This document shows positions 43,857-45,478 of a DNA stretch of 64,000 nucleotides, piece after piece (within the stretch, counting starts at the first letter, position 1; every line of letters begins with the position of its first letter). The stretch lies in assembly GCF_006345805.1 (NCBI RefSeq), contig NC_043009.1, forward strand, positions 56,668,001-56,732,000. The letters are read 5' to 3'. Position numbers and translations under genes: made by a program. Source of the DNA: Octopus sinensis. Taxonomy: Eukaryota. Under the pieces are notes generated by a model. The model did no database searches and was not told the origin of the DNA. It saw only the letters and a program-made list of their open reading frames with translations.

Positions 43857-45478
43857 CGACGGGCTTCTTTCAATTTCCGTCTACCAAATCCACTCACAAG
43901 GCTTTGGTCAACCCAAGGTTATAGTAGAAAACACTCACTCAAGGTGCCACGCAGTGGGACTGAACCCGGAACCATGTGGTTGGTAAGTAAACAAAGGAAA
44001 TTCTTGTGTGGGAGTTGACACCTCCCAAAAAATATTTAAAAGAGCTGGAAAGGAAGACCGTGGTGTTGAGGATCTATTCGAAGTCGCTAGACACCATAGC
44101 CGTCTTCCCAAAGGCCACTATTTTGAACGAGCTGGCGGACTACATGCCAGCCGTTAAATTTATCTCACAGGGAGTCAAATATGCAACGGTCTGGTTGCTA
44201 TTTGACTCCCCACAAGAAGCTTGCGACTTTGCAGGCCAGCCCCTTGATGGCAAAGAAATATTATTCTTGCCAAATTACATGGGGAAAAAGCTATTAAAAG
44301 CTTGGATCTGTGGCCTACCACCCGGAGTTGAGCCCGAGTGGATAGAGGACTCTATCCGCCGGGGTCTGAGTGGTAGCAGTACCAAGCTGCTGAGTGTTAA
44401 AATGTTGCCTGCGGCTGATTGGGAGGGGTCGAAAGCTGTTTTGACCCTATGGACCCAATCAGCCGAAAGTCTGGTTTTTCCAGATTTCTTGAGGATGGCC
44501 GGGTCCAGGTATCCGGTGATGCTTGAGGGACGCCCCCCCCCCCCCGCCAAGTGTCACTGTGCCTGGAGACCGGCCAAATTAAGAAGAACTGCCCCAGGGA
44601 CCAAAGTAGGATCCTGGAACAGTTAATGGTGGAATCTCTCCCTGCTCCCCCAATGGAGGGAGAGAAACAGAACGAGGAAATTGCTACATCCTCAAAAAAG
44701 AAAAGAAAGATGAGCAACAATGGTGACCCACCGAATGACCCGGGAGCTGCGGGAGAAATAGAGGACCCGTTGTGTGCAACACAGGAACCTCACCCTCCCG
44801 CGGCCCAGGGAAAAAAAGGTAAAAAAAGAAACGGGACGCCGCCGGCGGATTGTAACACGCAGACGGCGCCTCCCAAGTCTCCTCAGGCGGGTGTGCCGCC
44901 GGAGGATCAATATGTGGTCCTCTTCCACAAAGGAGGAACACTTGAAAACGAAATAGGGAAAATGGAAAGGAGAGGCCAAAGGGAGAGACTTCGGTCCTGC
45001 ACGGAGGACCCTGAGTGGCCTTCGCAGGTGGCTGCGGAGGTCCTATGGGATAGTGATCTGTGCAGGATCGTGAATTCCTTCCCGGAGGACTCCTTTCAAT
45101 TTATACCTGCATGGTACGGCCTGACAAAGAATGATTGCCTCAATGAAGCAAGAGCGCTGGTCGGCCGGGTGACTTGAACTTTTTGAATGTTTTTAAACAA
45201 AAAATAGAACATTGCATCATATTGAGAAAGAGGTTCATTGCCTCATTGCGACTTTTGTGAAATTTTGTGACTTTTTGATTTTTTGAAAAAAGAACATTGT
45301 CTTAGAGAAGCGGAAGTCGGCGGGCGCTTTCGTCTTCTCCCATCACCATCTTTGTTCCTTCACCATCATTCATACCATCAATGTTTACGTCCAGCCCGCA
45401 AAGCTACATCTATGTACTGCATTCATGGCAAATTTAATGAATAAAAGTAATCTACTTACCACACAGTCACTCCTCCGC
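43612..45478 (-). mobile_element. SINE family A split in its tRNA-like head by a 1.45-kb insertion
   Basis: ...GGAACCATGTGGTTGGTAAGTAA (43990) resumes as TCTACTTACCACACAGTCACTCCTCCGC (45451). Confidence 0.9.
43991..45444 (+). mobile_element. ORF1-only non-LTR retroelement (Tx1/L1-type gag-like ORF, one frameshift, no RT), 5'-truncated
   Basis: Reading frame open from the first inserted base. ORFs 44006-44626 and 44551-45177 join into one protein with ...PVMLEGRPP..KC/SLCLETGQIKKNCP (CCHC-like knuckle) and a Lys/Pro-rich tail. ~265-nt 3' UTR ending in AATAAA. TSD AAGTAA (43985-43990, 45445-45450). Visibly GC-richer than its flanks. Confidence 0.78.

Follow-up and report, generated by a model that had tools for sequence, protein, structure and literature searches.

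Background

ORF1-only LINEs are a named category that comprises HeT-A, HAL1 and Ag-Sponge (as described in PMC5786205, and for HAL1 also in PMC5753468). HAL1 elements of mammals are non-autonomous derivatives of the L1 group that encode ORF1p only (PMC5753468, PMC5786205); in HAL1 proper, derived from mammalian L1, this protein is of type II (Transposase_22; PMC5203782). The same source gives type I ORF1 with RRM and CCHC motifs as consistent with Tx1 elements in animals. At Drosophila telomeres, HeT-A and other ORF1-only Jockey elements lie in head-to-tail arrays with ORF2-bearing partners, and ORF1-only lineages have spawned new ORF1-only families (PMC13534243). Preference for a site within a repeat is described for other APE-type LINEs, namely Tx1L in Tx1D and the crocodilian Tx1-Mar in Mariner-N4_AMi, whose targets are shared by non-autonomous passengers (SINEU; PMC4494074).

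Here we describe an element found in 64 kb of DNA from Octopus sinensis (contig NC_043009.1, positions 56,668,001 to 56,732,000), referred to as the window. We consider it highly probable that the window holds a broken copy of a multicopy ORF1-only element that occupies a fixed base of a SINE, and for which an autonomous L1/Tx1-group element found at the same base is the likely source of mobilisation in trans. Like HAL1 (PMC5753468, PMC5786205), the octopus element is a non-autonomous L1-group derivative with ORF1p only, but it differs in a type I ORF1 (RRM-RRM-CCHC) instead of Transposase_22, in its fixed SINE base, in an AATAAA end with a partner-shared hairpin and in its independent molluscan origin. 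Like the telomeric Jockey elements (PMC13534243), the octopus system is ORF1-only, restricted to a niche and arranged head-to-tail with ORF2-bearing partners; unlike them it belongs to the L1/Tx1 group, its niche consists of tens of thousands of dispersed SINE sites, and there is no sign of a host function. Ag-Sponge is likewise an ORF1-present non-autonomous LINE and differs as CR1-derived (PMC5786205). The targets of Tx1L, Tx1-Mar and their kin are given as a DNA transposon, LTR element, snRNA gene or microsatellite (PMC4494074), whereas the octopus target is the head of a SINE and the octopus passenger is protein-coding and more numerous than its partner.

ORF1-only LINEs and repeat-targeting Tx1 elements are both known; their combination in a SINE was absent from the literature searched. 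The literature searched (listings and the first parts of abstracts) contained no ORF1-only Tx1-type family and no SINE-head-targeting LINE in cephalopods; Repbase, subscription journals and supplements could hold them. The term ORF1 has no occurrence in the main text of a recent octopus repeat annotation that lists L1-Tx1 families (PMC13282606), and octopus tRNA-SINEs are cited without sequences in the part of PMC4758252 consulted.

Results

The window contains a truncated and frameshifted ORF1-only element

The 64-kb stretch is of animal type and rich in microsatellites and SINEs. Among its 29 stop-free frames of at least 130 aa, only two appeared protein-like by eye, the overlapping frames 43991-44626 (211 aa) and 44527-45177 (216 aa). 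Aligned with five other copies, they are one ORF split by a 1-base deletion at about 44556-44557, within the zinc knuckle, and jointly comprise 395 codons and a stop, which agrees with the roughly 395 codons and single frameshift read in the initial annotation. Compared with another copy (L023), the C-run preceding the knuckle is 9 bases longer in the window copy, and the reading frame is kept. The insert ends 267 bases after the stop, at AATAAA followed by the second AAGTAA, so that the earlier description of a short 3' UTR, AATAAA and a target-site duplication (TSD) with no room for ORF2 holds (Table 1). Altogether, the insert at 43991-45444 is no one-off deletion but belongs to a multicopy family of ORF1-only non-LTR elements, with its 5' end truncated and its frame shifted.

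The truncation is real, although small within the ORF itself. In 25 of 29 other loci the alignment begins at base 1-4 of the query with an ATG immediately before it, and therefore the window copy lost exactly the ATG and a 5' UTR of about 0.6 kb; the 5' junction lies 554-627 bp farther upstream in 17 of the 29. The element had also been called young. Its nearest copies are 92% identical, compared with 3.0-4.9% divergence in the ORF1 core of the three largest sampled subfamilies; the copy is thus not among the youngest, and it is decayed. Contigs from four public runs (four organism labels) covered the stretch in each of its 30 bins (90% likeness), and in these runs an empty orthologous site is indistinguishable from many other SINE copies.

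Table 1. Features of the ORF1-only insertion and its host SINE (positions within the window)
Feature	Positions	Strand	Remark
Host SINE, 3' part (B-box-like motif, body, AT/GT microsatellite, tail)	43613..43984	-	Ends approximate; same sequence follows the element in sense copies
5' target-site duplication AAGTAA	43985..43990	+	
ORF1 without ATG, broken by a 1-base deletion near 44556	43991..45177	+	
Two tandem RRM domains, predicted	44024..44536	+	Mapped approximately from residues 13-183 of intact copy L073
CCHC zinc knuckle, frameshifted, H to Q here	44552..44592	+	CX2CX4HX4C in other copies
Conserved C-terminal alpha/beta domain (~90 aa) of the ORF1-only lineage	44902..45174	+	Preceded by a disordered basic linker; without a clear match in structure searches
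3' UTR, too short for ORF2	45178..45444	+	
3' hairpin, family YGCC-N5-GGCR	45418..45430	+	One stem mismatch here; common to the autonomous partner
AATAAA terminus, without poly(A)	45440..45445	+	Joined directly to the target
3' target-site duplication AAGTAA	45445..45450	+	
Host SINE, 5' head part with A-box-like motif	45451..45479	-	End approximate

ORF1 is predicted to have an RRM-RRM-CCHC fold

Neither broken window frame had a Pfam match, and Pfam detected only zf-CCHC in ORF1. An AlphaFold2 model of the intact natural copy L073 with 19 relatives has two confident alpha/beta domains (residues 13-99 and 100-183). Behind them come the knuckle, a linker that is basic and disordered (216-303) and a small domain at the C terminus, itself modelled well (pLDDT 81). 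The first two domains match RRMs, with a Foldseek E-value of 7e-5 to tandem-RRM proteins and a VIA match to La (Z 9.2, rmsd 2.8, 83 aligned), and the predicted fold is thus RRM-RRM-CCHC, in line with the RRM-like pattern noted initially. The knuckle recognised at that stage is present as CCHC, reading KCHLCLETGHIKKNC in other copies, and its Q is private to the window copy, which has CAA where the compared copies have CAC or CAT for H. With a predicted RRM and CCHC, the octopus protein is a type I ORF1. The earlier likening to HAL1 is apt for how the element works, but it is not a HAL1: an assignment to HAL1 proper was rejected on the zf-CCHC match and the modelled two RRMs plus knuckle. An RNase H1 hybrid-binding fold was considered for the C-terminal domain and rejected (no Foldseek match at E<=0.001; best VIA match Z 4.8, rmsd 3.5, 81 aligned), and searches of Pfam and the Atlas with this domain gave no match.

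Named protein homologues come from Octopus and Argonauta species. Among 153 database proteins compared, one was clearly of the ORF1-only type (P0001, 74% over the core), and the others were nearer to autonomous types or weak. Separately, in the alignment three ORF1s (L102, L125 and L038) are chimeras: across subfamilies, the C-terminal half varies independently of the RRM core to which it is joined, a pattern that suggests recombination or template switching.

An RRM-CCHC protein might also come from a processed copy of a host gene, for example a ZCCHC3-like one, and Atlas features include ZCCHC3-like clusters at 0.89-0.90. Against this, the protein is homologous to the ORF1 of APE-RT elements (27% identity to the ORF1 of the autonomous partner over 195 aa, E 1e-21), and the family comprises numerous diverged subfamilies, has a fixed target and ends in a tail that it shares with a LINE and that lacks poly(A). 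We give a host-gene retrocopy, named initially as an outcome that would overturn the annotation, practically no chance.

A multicopy family lacks ORF2

The family has a 5' UTR of about 0.6 kb, an ORF1 of about 400 aa, a 3' UTR of about 0.27 kb and a terminal AATAAA, without ORF2, for a total of about 2.0-2.3 kb. In the octopus genome a DNA search gave 48 matches (best 40 of 2,724 candidates scored) and a protein search using a natural copy as query yielded 130 (best 129 of 13,828 candidates), many with open frames of about 400 codons. ORF2 was found between ORF1 and the tail in none of 85 non-redundant loci chosen by homology, three of which had no tail found; in 81 of the 82 with a tail, it lay within 1.9 kb of the ORF1 start. 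Loci chosen by their 3' UTR gave the same picture, with ORF1 upstream in 27 of 30, truncation in three and ORF2 in none. Copies continuing into an APE-RT ORF2, the other outcome named against the initial proposal of a non-autonomous ORF1-only family, were therefore absent from both sets, and that proposal stands. Three features of ORF1-present non-autonomous LINEs are seen here: a multicopy family encoding ORF1p only, ORF1 kept functional in the source elements, and a 3' end shared with an autonomous LINE. Mobilisation in trans by the ORF2p of that LINE would be a fourth.

Flanked on both sides by target motifs were 73 ORF1-only units, 12 autonomous units, two of a second ORF1-only type and nine without a strong coding match. 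The ORF1-only units measure 1.3-2.7 kb, mostly 2.0-2.3 kb, with one of 5.2 kb. The second type (L103, 1.46 kb, and L104, 1.49 kb) is a separate ORF1-only lineage at the same site, whose ORF1 has 34-36% identity to that of the autonomous elements and 24-28% to that of the main ORF1-only lineage; two fragments (L013 and L089) may belong to it. At another locus (L009, 1-900 and 3280-3560) a copy and its host SINE interrupt a sequence resembling, by eye, a C2H2 zinc-finger array.

ORF1-only elements form a separate lineage with a conserved ORF1

A quick, midpoint-rooted tree built from 101 ORF1 cores places the 58 ORF1-only proteins beyond one long branch (SH-aLRT 100), which separates them from the two autonomous groups. 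Their subfamilies reach a dS of about 1.7, all with the short structure. Pairwise dN/dS among copies, a check proposed initially, was calculated for ORFs intact up to the knuckle and on that core alone: it is 0.20-0.22 at dS 0.1-1.5 and 0.43 at dS<0.05 for the 58 ORF1-only ORFs, and 0.17-0.29 and 0.52, respectively, for the autonomous ORF1 set. After correction for transition bias, private changes give 0.64 (not 1) and comparisons between subfamilies 0.18-0.25. By this measure the ORF1 of ORF1-only elements is under purifying selection between subfamilies (dN/dS about 0.2). Low values between subfamilies and higher ones for private changes argue that the source elements needed their own ORF1p while the subfamilies diverged.

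The same values would arise if the ORF1-only copies were recent deletion products of an undetected autonomous element with the same ORF1, in which selection had acted. The genome searches scored the best 40-150 of 1,441-16,654 candidates, and an autonomous element with an ORF1 of this type could be missed because only the best-scored candidates were examined. RT fragments also occur downstream of ORF1 at two loci, L091 and L213; however, in L091 the RT belongs to a 3.2-kb insert nested in the 3' UTR of an ORF1-only unit, and in L213 it lies outside the element, beyond the tail. Moreover, the autonomous ORF1s in 60 fetched stretches and 30 loci are at most 31% identical to the ORF1-only ORF1 among the matches listed, and the long branch (support 100) with deep, uniformly short subfamilies points the same way. 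We consider such deletion products improbable and favour an ORF1-only lineage.

The elements insert at a fixed base of a SINE head

The target is TGTGGT^AAGTAGCTTGCTWAC (TGTGGT^AAGTAGCTTGCTWACCAACCACATGG), which in an abundant octopus SINE lies between an A-box-like and a B-box-like motif. The motifs were recognised by eye against the box consensus and make this head a candidate tRNA-related one. An Rfam search with the same SINE in L061 and L093 gave no tRNA match, only hairpin and microsatellite noise. Of the 85 homology-chosen loci, 57 are sense insertions in the SINE site, and in 17 the motif leads into another unit or a decayed SINE; the remainder are seven others (four with the motif 4-5 bases later), one antisense insertion (the window copy) and three without a resolved site. 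In PMC4494074 a Tx1-type element counts as sequence-specific when over 20% of its flanks fall in a single repeat type, and here the share is 57/85 strictly and 74/85 at the motif. Exact tail-plus-site junctions number 453 genome-wide (reversed control, 0) and exact empty target sites 48,177. Duplications are frequently 15-16 bases long, and their lengths peak again at 9.

The target specificity suspected initially is therefore present as a fixed SINE base, to which the window copy is a rare antisense exception. Its host SINE is on the minus strand and split at 43984/45451. The antisense pattern occurs at four places genome-wide, and the truly antisense cases are the window copy and L241, a tail insert of about 30 bases with its own TSD; L242 and L244 were rejected as sense inserts read from the other strand. 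The target GGTAAGTAGCTTGCTTACC is nearly palindromic. The opposite strand of the window SINE reads GGTAAGTAA (GGT^AAGTAA), which agrees with the normal target at one more base; this base, a T, is present in both TSD copies. We infer that it arose by substitution before the insertion and improved the wrong strand as a target.

A variant SINE site, AAGAAGCTTGCTTCC, flanks both sides of seven inserts (L189, L197, L198, L200, L201, L028 and L188) that have their own common 5' ends; they may represent an earlier wave that followed an earlier SINE subfamily.

An autonomous L1/Tx1-group element shares the site and the tail

The 12 autonomous units at the same SINE base span 3.1-5.7 kb, with full length (5.4-5.7 kb) in L114, L123, L235 and L161. 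They encode ORF1 and an ORF2 of APE-RT-zinc organisation (Pfam Exo_endo_phos, RVT_1 and zf-RVT), whose nearest solved protein is L1 ORF2p (E 2.7e-65; R2, 6e-20). On its N-terminal APE, RT, C-terminal zinc motif and closeness to L1 ORF2p, the partner fits the L1/Tx1 group; none of the 21 matches of a reference search was a Tx1-named sequence, and membership of the Tx1 clade in particular is putative. A second autonomous family (L221-L228, L238 and L239; APE about 60% identical) was rejected as sharing the site, having no target motif at its ends and other tails. It is a young L1/Tx1-group set with several near-identical scores, without the SINE site and ending in AATAAAGA.

Comparison of the 3' tail with that of an autonomous element, suggested at the outset, showed that only the last 20-40 bases before the target, including the hairpin and AATAAA, are common to partner and ORF1-only units, joined in some subfamilies by the first ~35 bases after it. 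The YGCC-N5-GGCR hairpin is fully paired in 63/73 ORF1-only and 12/12 autonomous units, counts obtained with a fuzzy pattern that favours detection and from related sequences. Its loops vary (at least five common loop sequences), and four autonomous units have C-G for T-A in the outer pair. RNAfold favours another helix for the window tail. In 39 junction loci selected by pattern alone (the 30 listed first and nine of those after them), 25 tails were ORF1-only, 13 autonomous-type and one unassigned, or about 2:1 for ORF1-only over partner; one of the 13 (L050) in fact belongs to another SINE, which matches over 20 bases and sits in the target site. The host SINE was rejected as sharing the partner's tail, with only a weak internal 25-nt match (E 0.023). 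A different SINE at window 62400-63200 (tandem copies) and 16280-16309 has a 26-base 3' segment in common with autonomous tails at 96%.

The RT remnants of the window had been taken as the borrowed enzyme. An autonomous partner with the same base and 3' tail does exist, but it is not the source of that remnant: 63542-63715 (+) is a decayed L1/Tx1-type RT fragment (46% aa identity to the partner, E 7e-6), rejected as partner family since blastn gave no match to any fetched autonomous element.

Both element types also occur in arrays, head-to-tail and separated by the target motif, in the order ORF1-only/autonomous/ORF1-only in L092 and autonomous then ORF1-only in L234 and L165. These mixed arrays bear on whether the copies transposed at all or spread passively within SINE copies or segmental duplications, as the same SINE halves on both sides of nearly all copies and the duplicated appearance of L268/L269 might suggest. 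Passive spread is very improbable in view of different 5' truncation points at the same base (L011, L192, L035 and L056), the antisense insertions with their own TSD (the window and L241) and the recurrence of the SINE variant on both sides of its inserts, and we retain transposition into the SINE.

At the 5' end, the first 41-53 bases including the target motif are common (81-94%) to L161 and L010/L088, and to L165 and L170 versus L030. This likeness between autonomous and ORF1-only elements, despite 27% ORF1 identity, suggests exchange of 5' ends.

A model for mobilisation and a possible promoter in the target

The shared site, tail and arrays point to trans-mobilisation by the partner's ORF2p. 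The model draws on established knowledge of target-primed reverse transcription (TPRT). A Pol II transcript of the ORF1-only element would be coated by the element's own ORF1p; the partner's ORF2p would bind the 3' hairpin, nick after GGT and reverse-transcribe the RNA by TPRT. Each insertion would recreate the target at both ends, allowing later copies to stack, and the window copy would have entered the opposite strand of the quasi-palindromic site.

More tentatively, the landing site may be part of the element, with transcription starting inside the target (TAAGT as initiator) and a DPE-like RGACGTG at +28 coming from the element; we regard this as possible, though rather unlikely. In insect LINE promoters the DPE is placed at +28 to +32 (PMC4748587). 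RGWYG begins exactly at position 29 from the first target-motif base in 34/87 units, across diverged spacers and both element types, a count inflated by shared ancestry, and is elsewhere or absent in 53/87, including the youngest autonomous family. Twenty units carry subfamily-specific, heritable variants in the 5' target copy, and the 3' copy abutting the SINE lacks the variant in register in 15/15 (L110 ambiguous). Transcription inside the target is suggested because the RGWYG spacing matches a DPE and the 5' target variants are absent from the 3' copy; the RNA would then begin with target-like bases guiding 5' joining.

Discussion

The octopus elements make up a three-layer parasite system of a SINE, a site-specific LINE and an ORF1-only passenger. 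Selection on the passenger ORF1 is as strong as on that of the autonomous element (dN/dS about 0.2 in both) despite 27% identity between them, which makes it testable why half-LINEs keep ORF1 and whether ORF2p works with a non-cognate ORF1p. The partner offers a site-specific APE with a short, readable target, and the passenger is an ORF1-only lineage thriving in a dispersed niche, not at telomeres. If the promoter reading is true, an old ORF1-only lineage, more numerous than its enzyme donor and with 5' ends in common with it, would have in the SINE head both a safe haven and half of a promoter.
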